From contig JBBQXQ010000003.1 in NCBI GenBank assembly GCA_038209515.1, forward strand, positions 158-64,157: a DNA stretch of 64,000 bases. Direction: 5' to 3'. The notes beneath the pieces were generated by a model. That model saw only the letters and a program-made list of their open reading frames with translations, was not told the DNA's origin and did not search any database. The translations under genes and the position numbers were made by a program. Origin of the DNA: Gemmatimonadales bacterium. Its GTDB lineage: Bacteria; Gemmatimonadota; Gemmatimonadetes; Gemmatimonadales; GWC2-71-9. Shown here piece by piece: positions 6,304 to 51,482 of the stretch (position 1 is its first letter; the number at the start of each line of letters is the position of its first letter).

Positions 6304-7686
6304 TTATTCTGCGCACAACTCCTGGCGCGCGTGCTCGACTCGCTCGCGGAACCCGCGATCGCGCGACATCTGCCGGCTCACCTTATCGACGCTGTGAATC
6401 ACGGTCGAGTGATCGCGCCCGCCGAATGCCTGCCCAATCTCGACCAGCTGCATCTCGAGCAGCTCGCGGGCGAGATACATCGCGATCTGGCGCGGCACCG
6501 TGAGCGTCTTGATCCGCGCCTTCGAGCGGAGGCCCTCGGGTGTGACCCCCCACCGTCTGGCCACGACCTCCTGAACCTTGTTGATCGAGGGAAGCGCCTT
6601 GGGGGCCGCCAGTCCGTCCTCGCCCGGGCGAATCTTGTCGGAGAGCGCCTCCCGGGCCAGCTCGATCGAGACCTCCTTATGCTTCAAGGAGGCGAACAGC
6701 AACAACTTAATGATACAGCCCTCAAGCTCGCGCACGTTCGACCGCACGTGCTCGGCGATAAACCGCAGCACGTCGTCCGGGATGGTGAGCTCCAGGTGAT
6801 CCTGCTCCTGCTTCTTTCGGAGGATCGCAATCCGGTGCTCGAGGTCGGGCTGCCCGATATCGGCGACCATGCCCCACTCGAACCGGCTGACCAGACGTGC
6901 CTCGAGACCGGGCAGCTCCTTGGGAGGCCGGTCCGAGGTGAGGACGATCTGCTTGTTGCCCTCGTAGAGCGCGTTGAAGGTGTGAAAGAACTCTTCCTGG
7001 GTCATTTCCTTGCCTTCGAGGAAATGCACGTCGTCCACCAGGAAGAGATCAACGTCCGATCGATAGCGACGGCGAAACTCCGGCATGGTCCGGCTGTGGA
7101 TGCTCTCGATCACCTCGTTGATGAACTGCTCGGCCCCCACGTAGAGCACCCGAGTGTCGGGGTGCCGCTCGACCACGGTATGGGCGATCGCCTGCATCAA
7201 GTGGGTCTTGCCCAACCCGGTGGCGCCGTAGATGAAGAGCGGGTTGTAGGTCTTGCCGGGGGATTCGGCAGCGGCATGGGCCGCGGCCGCGGCCAGCTCG
7301 TTGGACTTGCCGATGACGAACGTGTCGAAGGTGTATCGCTCGTTGAGGGGCTGGGTGCTTGGGTTGATCTGCACCCCGACGACTGCCGGGGTCGACGGGG
7401 CCACGAAGAAGTCCATCTGCGGGCGCTTCTGGCGATCCTCGTTGACCCGGAACACGATCGACGTCGGCTGGCCCAGCACGGGCTCGGCGAGCCGCGAGAG
7501 GAGCGTCGCATGCTTCGTCTCGTTCCACTCGACCGCGAACTGATCCGGCGCGCCGATGATGAGACGACCCTCATCGAGGGCGATAGCCTCGGTGGGCTCG
7601 AGCCACGTTCGAATCGTGTGGTCGGGAAGTTCGCGATGCGCCTCGTCGAGAATGCGCTTCCAAGCGTCTTTAGCGGACAGCTGCAT
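6304..7686 (-). CDS. dnaA: Chromosomal replication initiator protein DnaA
   Basis: Walker A GATGLGKTHL, Walker B DLFLVDDVHF, and the C-terminal DNA-binding signature GGRDHSTVIHS are present. The start is set to ATG 7686 (MQLSAKDAWKRIL); the track start at 7755 would add 23 atypical residues. Confidence 0.92.
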   Translation of the reverse strand: MQLSAKDAWKRILDEAHRELPDHTIRTWLEPTEAIALDEGRLIIGAPDQFAVEWNETKHATLLSRLAEPVLGQPTSIVFRVNEDRQKRPQMDFFVAPSTPAVVGVQINPSTQPLNERYTFDTFVIGKSNELAAAAAHAAAESPGKTYNPLFIYGATGLGKTHLMQAIAHTVVERHPDTRVLYVGAEQFINEVIESIHSRTMPEFRRRYRSDVDLFLVDDVHFLEGKEMTQEEFFHTFNALYEGNKQIVLTSDRPPKELPGLEARLVSRFEWGMVADIGQPDLEHRIAILRKKQEQDHLELTIPDDVLRFIAEHVRSNVRELEGCIIKLLLFASLKHKEVSIELAREALSDKIRPGEDGLAAPKALPSINKVQEVVARRWGVTPEGLRSKARIKTLTVPRQIAMYLARELLEMQLVEIGQAFGGRDHSTVIHSVDKVSRQMSRDRGFRERVEHARQELCAE

Positions 7687-7726
7687 CGGTACTCGAAAAC
7701 GGAAGGAATTTTTTCTAGGGCGAGAG

Positions 7727-7755
7727 ATGTTACGGGCGGGGTGTTGAAAAGTCAA
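7727..7755 (-). promoter_or_regulatory. Candidate sigma-70 type promoter of dnaA
   Basis: On the minus strand, TTGACT (7755-7750) is separated by 17 nt from TAACAT (7732-7727), about 40 nt upstream of the dnaA ATG. Confidence 0.4.
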
Positions 7756-7778
7756 TCGGGGCTTGACAAGAGAAAAAT

Positions 7779-7902
7779 GACGGAGAGGACGGAGAAGCCG
7801 GAGAGGTGATCGCAGCCAGGAATCCCTTGTCGCCTTTTCGCGAGTCTCCCCGCTCGCTCCTCTGACTTTTCCTCTCTCCGTCCTCTCCGCCTTCTCCGCC
7901 CC
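7779..7902 (+). repeat. Palindromic element, copy 1: a purine arm of 9-nt GRCGGAGAR units, a 64-nt spacer, and a complementary pyrimidine arm
   Basis: Arm A is GACGGAGAG GACGGAGAA GCCGGAGAG G at 7779-7806. Arm B is cctctctccgtcctctccgccttctccgcccc at 7871-7902. Positions 7874-7900 are the exact reverse complement of 28769-28795 (27 nt). Confidence 0.75.
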
Positions 7903-7913
7903 TTACCCTCAAC

Positions 7914-7943
7914 TTGACCCCGTCCCTCTCCTCCGGCTAACTT
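7914..7943 (+). promoter_or_regulatory. Candidate sigma-70 type promoter of rpmH-rnpA-yidD-yidC
   Basis: TTGACC (7914-7919) is separated by 18 nt from TAACTT (7938-7943). A GGAGG sequence at 7958-7962 precedes the ATG at 7972. Confidence 0.4.
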
Positions 7944-7971
7944 CCCCGGCTCACTTTGGAGGATTCCCCGG

Positions 7972-8133
7972 ATGAAGCCGTCGTATCGGCCACGGAACAA
8001 GCGCCGGATCACCAAGCACGGATTCCGCGCTCGCATGGCCACCCGCTGGGGCCGAGCCGTTCTCTCGCGCCGCCGGAAGAAGGGGCGTAAGCGGCTCACC
8101 GTGTCGCTGCCGTCGAAGCACGGAGGCTCCTGA
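7972..8133 (+). CDS. rpmH: 50S ribosomal protein L34
   Basis: Translated by hand: [53 protein letters not shown] (53 aa, so below the ORF-track cutoff). It carries the L34 signature [21 protein letters not shown] and sits in the canonical position upstream of rnpA. Confidence 0.92.
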
Positions 8134-27829: not shown

Positions 27830-28855
27830 CTAGGGCTCCGCGACCACGAATGGGCTGCCCCCGAGCTTGGCCTTGATCTTCGGTACCGCGGCCAGTGCCT
27901 CCGCCCGGCTCGCATAGTTCCCCACCCGCACTTTATAGAGTCCAGCATCGGCGACGGTCACCGCCGCGAGCCCCCGTGCGCTGAGTTTCCTGGCAATGGC
28001 GTCGGCCGCCGCCGCAGTGTGTACCGCGGTGACCTGAACCCGGAAGCGCCCGCCCGATGGCAGCGTCGGGGCCGGCCGTGCCGTTGGCGTTCGGCTCGTG
28101 GTGTCCGGCCGAGTCGGTGCCGGCCTGGGGCCCGCAGGGGGGTTGGGGGGCAGCGTCGGGGTCACCGGCGAAATGCTGTCCGCGCGGCGCGCGAATATGG
28201 TGTCTCGCGGAGCGCTGGCCACGGTCGTAGGCGAGTCCGCCGAAGCCCGCGGGGCCGAATCGATCGCCAACTGGGGGCAGCGCTGGTTCAGGTAGCCGAG
28301 CTGGTTCTCCAACTCGACGTTGCCTCGCGAGGCGGCCAGACCGTCCGCGAGCCAACGACACGCCAGCGCCGGGTTCTTCTGATCGAAGTAAGTGCGCGCA
28401 GCCCAGTAAGACGTCTGGGGCAGGAGCGTGCTGCCCGGGTAGTCGCGCCGGAGTCGCTCCAGGTTGCGGGCCGCTCCATCCAGATTGCCACTGGCGTAGT
28501 CGAGCTGCACCAGCCGGAGGAGCGCGTCGTCGGCCCAGCTGCTGGAGGAGTGCTCGACCGCGACGCGCTGAAGCTGGCGGCGCATCCCGGCGGCATCGGT
28601 GGCCACCATGGCCTGAGTGTAGAGGATCTGGGGGTACAGCGTATCGCTTGGAGGAGTGGTCGCCAGCAGTCGCTGCACCTTGATCCGGGCCGAGTCGCCC
28701 TGGCCTTGCTGGGCATCGCGGATGACGTCGACCAGACGCGGGTCGGTCTGGGCGGAGAGGACGGAGAAGGCGGAGAAGGCGGAGAGGACGGAGAGGATAT
28801 ACACAGCCCGTCCCGCGAGCCGACGCGCCAGGTTGGAGTTGGGTCGCTGGATCAT
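27830..28855 (-). CDS. TPR plus SPOR-domain protein (C-terminal portion of the uninterrupted 699-codon ORF; possible internal start at ATG 28855)
   Basis: It begins MIQRPNSNLARRLAGRAVYILSVLSAFSAFSVLSAQT (signal or TM-like), continues with TPR-like helices and a Pro/Thr-rich linker, and ends in a SPOR-type segment FRVQVTAV...YKVRVGNYASRAEA. GGAGAGGG precedes the ATG. Confidence 0.7.
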   Translation of the reverse strand: MIQRPNSNLARRLAGRAVYILSVLSAFSAFSVLSAQTDPRLVDVIRDAQQGQGDSARIKVQRLLATTPPSDTLYPQILYTQAMVATDAAGMRRQLQRVAVEHSSSSWADDALLRLVQLDYASGNLDGAARNLERLRRDYPGSTLLPQTSYWAARTYFDQKNPALACRWLADGLAASRGNVELENQLGYLNQRCPQLAIDSAPRASADSPTTVASAPRDTIFARRADSISPVTPTLPPNPPAGPRPAPTRPDTTSRTPTARPAPTLPSGGRFRVQVTAVHTAAAADAIARKLSARGLAAVTVADAGLYKVRVGNYASRAEALAAVPKIKAKLGGSPFVVAEP

Positions 28856-28889
28856 TCCGCCCTCTCCGTCATCTCCGCCCTCTCCGCCC
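28751..28889 (-). repeat. Palindromic element, copy 2 (inverted relative to copy 1), lying entirely inside an open reading frame
   Basis: The plus strand reads GGCGGAGAG GACGGAGAA GGCGGAGAA GGCGGAGAG GACGGAGAG GA at 28751-28797. A 59-nt spacer follows. The complementary arm ccgccctctccgtcatctccgccctctccgccc lies at 28857-28889. Confidence 0.75.
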
Positions 28890-29929
28890 TTCATGATTGT
28901 CACCATCAGAACCAAGTCCGTGAGGAGCCCCCGCTCATCCGATACCGTAGTGGTCTTGAGCGACTCATCGGTAGTGCGGGCGGCTCGGAGCGCGGCCCGG
29001 ATGCGGGAGACCGGCCATTGTGGCGCCCACCGGGCCCAACTCGATGCCTCCTCCCTGTATCCCAGGAGACCGTACGGACGGTTCTGGAGCAGGACCTTGA
29101 ACACTGCATCCTCCAGAGTGCGTCCACGAAGGCCCTTGTCGTACAGCGTGCGGGCAATGCCGAGGCCGACGAGGGCCGTGCCGAGCTGCGTCACCAGCCT
29201 GACCCCCGACACACCCGGCTGGCCCAGCACCCGCAACAGAACGGCGATGGCGCGGCCAGTCTCTCCGTTCAACACGGCCTCACGCCAGTCCCACTGGGTC
29301 TCGCCGTGCCGGATCCCGACCAGCTCGCCGACTCGCTCCGGAGTAAGCGTCTCGCCCGAGGGCAGTGAGGCAAGCTTGGCGAGCTCCGATTGGAGCGCAC
29401 CGAGATCGGACCCAACGCACCGTACCAGATGGCGCACCGCCTCGGGGTCCAGCGTCAGGCCGAGCTGGTCCGCCCGTCGCAATGCCCATTTCTCCGCCCG
29501 CTCGGCAGGGAGGGGGTCGAACTTCACGGTGTACGCGCCGCGGGACAGTTCCTTGTCCTCGGCCTCCTCTCCAGATCCCTGGACCAGGACCACGACCGTC
29601 TCCAAGCTGGGGCGCTCCAGATAGCGCAGGAACTCGGCTCTTCCCTTGGTCTTCCGCTTCCAGCCTTCCACGTCACGGAGCACGACGACCCGTCGCTCCG
29701 CCAGCATCGGCAGTGTGTTACAGAGGGAGTGGATCTCTTCCGGGTCGAGCTGGGCCGCCGATCGCTGATCGAAGTTGAAATCTCGCAGACCGGGATCGAG
29801 CGTCCGGTCGAGGATCATGCGGACTGCCTCGTCCTTGAGCTCATCCTCGTGTCCGTGCAAATAGTACACCGGCGCCACTTCGCCCTTGTTCAGGGATCGA
29901 AACAACGCATCCATCGAATGTGCGGGCAT
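28856..29929 (-). CDS. holA: DNA polymerase III delta subunit (N-terminal 358 codons of the 699-codon ORF; no stop codon of its own)
   Basis: It begins FRSLNKGEVAPVYYLHGHEDELKDEAV... and has the length and helical C-terminal pattern of HolA. The ORF continues in frame into the repeat-encoded KGGEGGDDGEGG. Confidence 0.72.
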
Positions 29930-51203: not shown

Positions 51204-51291
51204 GAGTTTCTCCCGATACGTTCCTGCCCATCCGCATTTCGCGGCTGCTGGAATATAGGCGCACCGGATTGCCGGTGGCCCCCGGTCCCTC

Positions 51292-51389
51292 GCAGACGAC
51301 ACGGGCATGGGCTCTCCGGCAGGCTCCGCGACAACCGCTCCGCCCTTCCCCTGGGAGCCTGCCTTCGAACCCATACCCGTGTCGTCTGC
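51292..51389. repeat. 98-nt nested inverted repeat (long hairpin) in a divergent intergenic region
   Basis: The outer arms GCAGACGACACGGG (51292-51305) and CCCGTGTCGTCTGC (51376-51389) form a perfect 14-bp pairing. The inner arms GGCAGGCTCC (51318-51327) and GGAGCCTGCC (51354-51363) form a perfect 10-bp pairing. ATGGG/CCCAT pairing lies between them. Confidence 0.7.
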
Positions 51390-51482
51390 TCCGTCCCGCA
51401 TGCCACGGTCGGGCCGCCAGCGGAACTGGGCCGAGCCCCGAAGGCTGAGCATATTTGCTATCACCTCCAACCTGCCGGCATC

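Follow-up and report, generated by a model that had tools for sequence, protein, structure and literature searches.

What are the two long inverted repeats found in a 64,000-nt stretch of a Gemmatimonadales genome (GenBank assembly GCA_038209515.1, contig JBBQXQ010000003.1, positions 158 to 64,157 of the forward strand; this whole stretch is "the window" below)? One, here called copy 1, lies between the divergent dnaA and rpmH genes; the other, copy 2, lies inside a gene for a HolA-TPR-SPOR fusion protein. In both, an array of 9-nt units faces its own complement across a centre, and the initial annotation took them for two copies of one palindromic element. The answer favored here is that they are likely to be old, fast-evolving quasi-palindromes at two fixed positions of this Gemmatimonadales lineage: resident, non-mobile repeats with co-evolving arms, not transposed copies (likely, with a probability of 0.6-0.7). 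The fuller statement, that they are resident quasi-palindromes kept complementary by slippage and hairpin-templated correction, with consequences, stands at about even odds (0.5). The 5' arm is usually composed of 9-nt GNCGGRRAR units and the 3' arm of their complement, and the arms of one locus stay complementary while the sequence and length of the unit turn over between lineages. The parts of the two repeats are:

7779 to 7806, forward strand: copy 1, 5' purine-rich arm, with GACGGAGAG, GACGGAGAA and GCCGGAGAG at 7779-7805, then G at 7806; period 9, 3.1 copies according to Tandem Repeats Finder (TRF)
7807 to 7870, forward strand: copy 1, spacer or loop of 64 nt, including a small internal hairpin, GCGAG..CTCGC
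7871 to 7902, forward strand: copy 1, 3' pyrimidine-rich arm, with CTCTCCGTC, CTCTCCGCC and TTCTCCGCC at 7874-7900; TRF period 9
27830 to 29929, reverse strand: 699-aa open reading frame (ORF) with a HolA (DNA polymerase III delta) domain, a linker, an internal signal or anchor, TPR and SPOR
28856 to 28889, reverse strand: copy 2, 5' arm, on the coding strand GGC GGA GAG GGC GGA GAT GAC GGA GAG GGC GGA
28798 to 28855, reverse strand: copy 2, loop, beginning with an in-frame ATG (28855..28853) within ATGA
28751 to 28797, reverse strand: copy 2, 3' arm, on the coding strand CTC TCC GYC and TTC TCC GCC units

On the forward strand, copy 2 reads as five purine units (28751-28797), with the complementary ones at 28856-28889. 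The unit GRCGGAGAR occurs 16 times in the window (5.3 +/- 2.1 expected), 13 of them in copies 1 and 2, and a two-unit pattern occurs 15 times against an expectation of 3.0. TRF reports a period of 9 in all four arms, the arms within each copy are 84-93% complementary, and no other inverted repeat with 9-mer arrays was found in the 64 kb. As single-stranded DNA, copy 1 folds at -26.1 kcal/mol (z -2.5), and as RNA at -57.1 kcal/mol (z -4.5); the RNA fold of copy 2, at -92.3 kcal/mol (z -5.8), was equalled by none of 200 shuffles. The initial annotation described the two loci well in outline: the coordinates of copy 1, its 9-mers and its 64-nt spacer, the position and inverted-repeat design of copy 2 (28751-28889), the recurrent architecture with 9-nt periodicity and the potential for a large hairpin all hold up. 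It had also recognized no named family, and none emerged: at the gathering threshold, Rfam 15 reports only RNase P RNA and one tRNA in the window, with nothing but sub-threshold generic hairpin (miRNA precursor) matches at copy 1, and a description of such a repeat system was not found in the literature searched.

Are the two loci copies of one element? As first reported, the 27 nt at 7874-7900 match the reverse complement of 28769-28795 exactly. The "loose similarity" that had been seen between the two spacers is no better than that of shuffled sequences (z -0.3), and the same is true of all 21 loop pairs that can be drawn from copies 1 and 2 and five further elements. Excess similarity within a genome between the dnaA-rpmH and holA loci was absent from the genomes compared, being high in the window only; in the related loci L010 and L135 (loci other than the window are given L numbers), the units at dnaA-rpmH are of the GGGAA type but those at holA of the GGAGA type. 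Since the two loci of other genomes differ in unit type, the 27-nt match in the window reflects a shared unit type rather than recent transposition. No flanking direct repeat was seen at copy 2 or at L075, an inverted repeat described below, and the polymorphism for presence and absence at orthologous sites that marks a miniature inverted-repeat transposable element (MITE) was not observed. What remains of the two-copy element is a common architecture and common 9-nt units, without a discrete repeated sequence and with unrelated interiors. Two copies of a single mobile 125-140-nt element were rejected on those interiors, on the differing unit types and on the lack of an empty site in 13 orthologous spacers; genome-wide homogenization, or a trans-acting factor, was rejected because the two loci show no excess similarity within a genome.

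The orthologous spacers provide the main evidence for residence. An identical L34 protein served as the lead to nine related loci, and MutS with 10-kb flanks led to six further spacer-bearing loci (L010-L012, L132, L134, L135), the holA junction being present in five MutS loci (L010, L011, L132, L133, L135). The relatives are uncultured Gemmatimonadales by their source names, known from metagenome-assembled genomes (MAGs) and metagenome contigs, and the sample comprises 13 non-redundant intact spacers, 9 junction DNAs and 118 homologous proteins; the divergence spanned by the sampled orthologs extends to MutS identities of ~80% and HolA-SPOR identities of ~60%. All 13 intact spacers have a purine array, a centre and a complementary pyrimidine array at the same position, the flanks being nearly invariant and the repeat island between them hypervariable. 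The unit is GACGGAGAG in the window, L007 and L132, GGCGGGAAA in L009, L010, L135 and L004, and GTCGGAGAG in L003; L001 has a different repeat that includes GCTTGAC, and L134 (21681-21986) a palindrome of ~14-16-nt units, GAGGCGGAAGAAAT... / CTCTTCTACCGCC..., instead of 9-mers. Across lineages there are thus GGAGA-type, GGGAA-type and 14-16-nt units; all units have a CGG core and a purine run in common, and the unit sequence changes even among close relatives with identical L34.

Despite this turnover, a single long hairpin is predicted in 13 of 13 spacers (z -2.7 to -11.7 for the ten tested against shuffles), and in several orthologs the complementarity of the arms reaches into the non-repeat centre. 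In an alignment-free test, left arms at the dnaA-rpmH locus paired better with their own right arm (16.4) than with right arms taken from other genomes (11.7), the observed sum being reached in only 2 of 20,000 permutations; at holA the corresponding values were 21.0 and 16.7, with the sum reached in 247 of 20,000. Whole units turn over in both arms, which points to homogenization rather than to single compensatory substitutions. Ordinary low-complexity tracts, which the initial annotation had named as the finding that would overturn it, do not describe arms that co-vary at orthologous sites. The alignment of dnaA-rpmH spacers that it had proposed does delimit a repeat island by near-invariant flanks, but none of the 13 spacers is free of the element, so that an empty site is missing. 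In L133 only ...CCTCTCAA|CTTGACCC is left of the copy 1 repeat and an insertion sequence (IS) stands in its place, so that an intact repeat is dispensable, at least in that assembly. The IS-like element (L133:21712-22100, with a faint DDE_Tnp_IS1 hit) lies upstream of rpmH, where copy 1 and dnaA would be expected, and of the pyrimidine arm only the last few bases persist. A separate observation concerns the centre of the palindrome, which is at least 50% AT in 8 of 13 orthologs (genome 34%), with GAAAAGAAAAAA-type tracts; L003, L007, L009, L010, L012 and L135 are among these, and copy 1 of the window is exceptional at 38%.

What could copy 1 do where it stands? Its surroundings are as follows:

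6304 to 7686, reverse strand: dnaA (orthologs with DnaA_N, Bac_DnaA and Bac_DnaA_C)
7727 to 7755, reverse strand: dnaA promoter-like site, sigma-70-like, TTGACT, 17 nt, TAACAT; kept in all orthologs
7762 to 7767, forward strand: left direct repeat CTTGAC beside copy 1, unchanged in 12 of 13 aligned orthologs and CCCGAC in L001
7913 to 7943, forward strand: putative rpmH promoter, TTGACC at 7914-7919, 18 nt, TAACTT at 7938-7943, with the right CTTGAC at 7913-7918
7972 to 8133, forward strand: rpmH, ribosomal protein L34, 53 aa (PF00468)

Further to the right follow rnpA, yidD, yidC and mnmE. The rpmH promoter block and a GGAGG Shine-Dalgarno (SD) sequence lie to the right of copy 1; the block, near-invariant across orthologs, was read from the sequence and the alignment, and a consensus promoter scan gave no call there. 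Copy 1 had been said to fill most of the 285-nt divergent region: it occupies 124 of the 285 nt (44%), though most of the gap between the two -35 boxes. Because of this placement, neither core promoter (dnaA or rpmH) should transcribe copy 1, and any effect it has would then be exerted at the DNA level. Its loop is not conserved in relatives, no small ORF running through it is conserved across orthologs, and no intrinsic terminator (GC-rich hairpin plus T run) was found in 7600-8050, the locus lying between divergent promoters. The CTTGAC sequences bracketing copy 1, the right one of which doubles as the rpmH -35 box, may descend from an old target-site duplication or from the duplication of a promoter; all 13 spacers are occupied.

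An origin next to copy 1, as the initial annotation had it, finds no support: no DnaA box with one mismatch or fewer occurs anywhere in the 64-kb window, which has scattered weak two-mismatch boxes near dnaA, and a clear switch in GC skew was not seen across it. The repeat units themselves do not match the DnaA box TTATCCACA, and the DNA-binding motif of the DnaA of the window is canonical (RDHSTV). A DnaA-box-like 9-mer, TGTTGAAAA, does lie between the -35 and -10 of the dnaA promoter (window 7742-7750), with TGTGGAAAA, matching 8 of 9 positions of the box complement, as its equivalent in L002, L004, L006, L012 and L132; it is consistent with dnaA autoregulation.

Copy 2 raises a different question, since the initial annotation overlooked that it lies within an ORF: is its symmetry a by-product of the protein? 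It occupies the domain junction of the HolA-SPOR ORF. Its 5' arm, rich in SD-like GGAG, encodes a linker rich in Gly and acidic residues (KGGEGGDDGEGG), its loop a positively charged segment (MIQRPNSNLARRLAGRAVYI), and its 3' arm LSVLSAFSAFSVLSA, the hydrophobic core immediately before a conserved A|QTDPRL. As translated, the linker, charged segment and hydrophobic arm are arranged like an internal signal peptide or membrane anchor. At identities down to 58%, 118 Gemmatimonadales homologs carry the fusion at full length, and most of these have a linker and helix of the repeat type. A clamp-loader subunit tethered to membrane or septum (SPOR being a septal peptidoglycan-binding domain), or else a conserved gene pair without an intervening stop, would be unusual in itself.

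The coding requirement does not fully account for the pairing. Copy 2 folds better than synonymous recodings drawn with the genome's own codon usage (z -4.4 in the window, -3.4 in L010, -2.8 in L132, -5.7 in L138), and its arms are built of rare codons (GGA is 12% of Gly codons, TCC 20% of Ser codons), which together make the pairing a nucleotide-level property beyond what the protein requires. Among the 118 homologs, kinship being ignored, those with more Gly in the linker tend to have more periodic LS[AV] triplets in the helix (rho 0.43), and Lys in the linker goes weakly with Pro in the helix (rho 0.21). Proteins with DGKDGK linkers carry FPVLPV helices, and the DNA of L138 has the near-perfect GGAYGGGAAG/CTTCCCGTC junction predicted from its DGK.../FPVLPV protein.

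The repeat is present in seven of nine junction DNAs, in one of them decayed (L011, z +2.1). The two repeat-free relatives, L136 and L137, keep the fusion without excess structure (z +0.6 and -0.4), which makes the holA hairpin a derived trait; they are distant outgroups with a different, non-repeat helix and are not empty sites. The pyrimidine arm of copy 2 replaces an ancestral membrane segment, the junction being only ~17 aa longer than in repeat-free homologs. In two other relatives (L133:1480-1730 and L135:430-680) an irregular unit of 8 or 5 nt in the purine array shifts HolA into the (ACG GAG AGG)n frame, where it stops at a TGA overlapping the GTG or ATG of a separate SPOR gene (GTGA/ATGA); this split may be natural variation or an assembly error in the repeat, and no conclusion here rests on it. 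A programmed +1 frameshift in the purine array was considered and rejected for want of a convincing slippery site.

Similar arrays also occur elsewhere. A scan of a genome collection with CGGAGANNNCGGAGANNNCGGAGA matched at least 119 stretches, dominated by unrelated high-GC taxa, and at least nine stretches of Gemmatimonadota have arrays outside the copy 1 and copy 2 loci, bearing out the initial expectation of further arrays in related genomes. L066 (6900-7035) has both GGAGA-type arms in frame within sigma-54, between parts of the core-binding domain, where they read as GEGGEEDGEGGDDG and TSPSSPSSPP; the frame of its pyrimidine arm differs from that in HolA-SPOR, and reading frames of the arms vary in general (GGE vs TER, LSA vs SPS). 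At L075 a large inverted repeat fills the divergent intergenic region beside lepA, and at L122 an array lies in the divergent region beside a DEAD-box helicase gene. The start of a solute-binding lipoprotein gene at L117 consists of a purine arm, an ATG, an n-region and a pyrimidine arm encoding LLSVFSALSVLSVLSVLSAC. At L106 a GGACGGAGA array encodes the C-terminal tail of NAPRTase, and L103 and L096 have solo arrays. With arrays and palindromes at this many loci, tandem-unit palindromes are recurrent in the lineage, in many contexts.

How might two arms change together? The proposed mechanism is concerted evolution. Replication slippage would spread or remove unit variants within one arm, a 9-nt period preserving the reading frame where the array is coding, and hairpin-templated strand switching ("quasipalindrome correction") would copy changes from arm to arm, so that the stem would renew itself while its sequence drifts. 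Such template switching, which makes imperfect inverted repeats more perfect, is established in E. coli (PMC7202029). The resulting 25-45-bp stem could form in single-stranded or supercoiled DNA and also in RNA. At copy 1 it would be a DNA cruciform or hairpin, or a mere spacer, between back-to-back dnaA and rpmH promoters. At copy 2, a stem in the holA-SPOR mRNA would pair the GGAG-rich stretch upstream of the internal AUG with anti-SD-like CUCUCC codons of the signal or anchor, and in this way internal starts could be masked and ribosomes slowed ahead of the membrane segment; the mRNA stem of the lipoprotein gene would likewise pair an SD-like stretch near the start codon with signal-peptide codons.

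Several points weigh against this account. Long inverted repeats are normally unstable in bacteria, and that every intact ortholog has one agrees no less well with positive selection on the stem than with self-maintenance. The template-switch step is one we infer, no event having been directly observed, and the sample of 13 spacers and 9 junction DNAs, on MAG or metagenome contigs with possible assembly errors, is small. The GGACGGAGA unit recurs at unrelated loci in several genomes, a recurrence that purely local evolution leaves unexplained, and the near-invariant CTTGAC pair around copy 1 could be the target-site duplication of an ancient insertion.

The most serious alternative, in our judgment unlikely, is that the stem itself is the selected function, its arms co-varying by compensatory substitution under selection. 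At copy 2, an mRNA hairpin would sequester the SD-like arm and the internal AUG or GUG, coupling or throttling the exported TPR-SPOR part relative to HolA, or pausing ribosomes before the membrane segment; at copy 1 and in other divergent regions, a supercoil-driven cruciform would buffer or link back-to-back promoters. Selection on the stem would agree with a structure kept, though its sequence is not, in all intact orthologs, with the pairing at copy 2 beyond the protein-coding requirement, with the same design at the lipoprotein gene start, and with the three inverted repeats in divergent intergenic regions (copy 1, L075, L122); the A/T-rich centres of 8 of 13 orthologs would favor extrusion. 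ATGA or GTGA follows the purine arm in 7 of 7 repeat-bearing junctions, and Met occurs in the expected zone in 72 of 117 homologs (26% expected), a count that is confounded. An RNA selected on one strand should show a consistent G.U bias, however, and none was found (47 vs 56 and 43 vs 38), so that nothing points to selection on one particular transcript. The hairpin is also missing from outgroup genes that retain the fusion architecture, the repeat has decayed in L011 and given way to an IS element in L133, and whole units change together across arrays, like homogenization and unlike single compensatory pairs. The 64-nt, non-A/T-rich centre of copy 1 in the window disfavors cruciform extrusion, and the contexts are heterogeneous (solo arrays, C-terminal tails, the interior of sigma-54).

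Another possibility, improbable on present evidence, is that the repeats are ancient insertions of a selfish palindrome, MITE-like or resembling the Rickettsia palindromic elements (RPEs), with termini of 9-nt subrepeats and interiors since randomized or domesticated. The palindromic architecture of ~125-140 nt would suit such an element, as would the arrays of one unit at several unrelated Gemmatimonadota loci, coding and non-coding, the direct repeat CTTGAC flanking copy 1, and the in-frame position of both arms in sigma-54 (L066) and in HolA-SPOR, which resembles RPEs (PMC10969869). Against this, interior similarity is absent in every pair of copies compared, none of the 13 spacers is an empty orthologous site, copy 2 has no flanking direct repeat and its pyrimidine arm replaces the ancestral membrane segment instead of adding to it; one genome can have different unit types at its two loci, and L134 has another repeat period.

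Slightly more doubtful still is the idea that the 9-bp units are protein-binding sites in two opposed arrays, their inverted symmetry a by-product of site geometry; candidate binders would be an initiator- or DnaA-like protein, a nucleoid protein, or a reader of polar motifs of the FtsK/SpoIIIE type. Contiguous 9-mers in opposed arrays beside dnaA, the CGG core and purine run common to all units, and the recurrence of the unit at several loci are what such sites would look like. They are harder to reconcile with a unit that differs between close relatives with identical L34, that is not a DnaA box although the DnaA motif is canonical, in a window devoid of boxes with one mismatch or fewer, and that in L134 gives way to a period of 14-16 nt; arrays also occur inside ORFs, as C-terminal tails and alone, and the complementarity of the arms extends into the non-repeat centre in several orthologs. 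Chance complementarity of ordinary low-complexity tracts is effectively refuted: tandem repeats are common, and a three-unit CGGAGA pattern occurs in many unrelated high-GC genomes (Streptomyces, for example), but motif counts far exceed those of shuffles, hairpin z-scores go down to -11.7, structure is kept at orthologous sites with co-varying arms, and the pairing is better than in synonymous recodings. Three further candidates were rejected: G-quadruplexes, which fit GGGAA-type units only; KOPS/SRS-like polar motifs, a dif-like centre being absent; and integron attC sites, in view of the lack of R'/R'' cores and of a cassette context.

Do the repeats resemble anything already described? REP and BIME sequences of enterobacteria and pseudomonads are 20-40 nt long, extragenic, present in hundreds of copies, conserved in sequence and linked to RAYT transposases. 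They too are short hairpin-forming palindromic repeats in intergenic DNA; here there are two loci per 64 kb, one of them coding, with tandem-array arms and a sequence that is not conserved among relatives. Cyanobacterial short tandemly repeated repetitive (STRR) sequences are lineage-specific direct arrays of 7-nt units in intergenic DNA, alike in their very short units (the window at 2278-2347 and L106 have arrays of 14- or 7-nt units), whereas arms paired as complements, and their use as coding sequence, fall outside the STRR description. Hairpins that sequester ribosome-binding sites act in translational coupling, for example in phage MS2 and in ribosomal-protein operons; at copy 2 and L117, an SD-like stretch by a start codon could similarly pair downstream, but most genomes have no stop in the upstream ORF (a fusion), and promoter DNA that is not transcribed has this architecture too.

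Quasipalindromes of the Ripley model (E. coli thyA and lacZ reporters; PMC7202029) are alike in having imperfect arms driven to complementarity via a hairpin template, but are short mutational hotspots known from single events, whereas the arms here are 25-45-nt tandem arrays maintained over species-level divergence. MITEs share terminal inverted repeats with the present loci, where the full-length consensus and the insertion polymorphism of MITEs were not found. RPEs are likewise ~100-150-bp palindromes lying in frame in housekeeping genes or in intergenic DNA, with a tolerated peptide; their families have a full-length consensus and a conserved peptide and are scattered as insertions (PMC10969869), whereas the present loci have no more than the arm unit in common, with unrelated interiors and a required membrane segment encoded by one arm. 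Borg tandem repeats (PMC9879509) are also fast-evolving, with units in multiples of three that add low-complexity segments to proteins; they are direct only, belong to archaeal extrachromosomal elements, encode disordered regions and have no complementary partner array (PMC9879509). REP/BIME elements, a terminator, a DnaA-box array and an Rfam family are excluded. The repeats are classed with hairpin-forming repeats or quasipalindromes, in a form of which the literature searched gave no description.

If the favored reading of resident, self-correcting quasi-palindromes is true, these loci offer a clean case in nature of inverted repeats that renew themselves and persist over long evolutionary times, their arms co-evolving as whole arrays in a way that usually comes to light only as single mutational events in laboratory work. 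They also show that nucleotide symmetry can dictate protein: complementing a (Gly-Gly-Glu)n linker gives a (Leu-Ser-Ala)n membrane helix, and one conserved protein uses the two. Such loci will mislead gene callers (fusion versus split), repeat annotators (false MITE calls) and origin predictors. A functional stem would amount to a new regulatory device, both at dnaA/rpmH and at the starts of secreted-protein genes in a poorly studied phylum. A more speculative, and as a whole improbable, extension is that Gemmatimonadales carry undescribed self-renewing palindromic minisatellites co-opted as gene-start modules. One arm would be an SD-like GGAG array or an acidic Gly-rich linker, the complementary arm a (Leu-Ser-Ala)n signal-peptide core, and the stem would gate translation of the exported protein. 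The holA-SPOR ORF might then yield a membrane-tethered delta fusion or separate products, by internal initiation, or by a change of frame followed by a stop at the conserved ATGA/GTGA. A clamp-loader gene would then contain a recoding or coupling device, reminiscent of dnaX.

Some minor observations concern other palindromes. In L106 (4525-4760), an inverted repeat of 7-nt units (GCAGTGA ... TCACTTC) adjoins the array encoding the NAPRTase tail. An intergenic inverted repeat of 9-nt units, CACGGAGAA / TTCTCCGTG, lies on a Rhodanobacteraceae contig (L118:1055-1175); as L118 is gammaproteobacterial, the architecture is not confined to Gemmatimonadota. The window itself has a 14/28-nt tandem array (AGCTAA...) at 2278-2347, itself palindromic, with 26-nt arms that are 81% complementary and separated by 1 nt, directly upstream of the RNase P RNA gene (2362-2745). 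At 51275-51406 it also has a non-repetitive inverted repeat with 53-nt arms, whose predicted RNA fold of -79.4 kcal/mol (z -4.7) was more stable than that of any of 200 shuffles.

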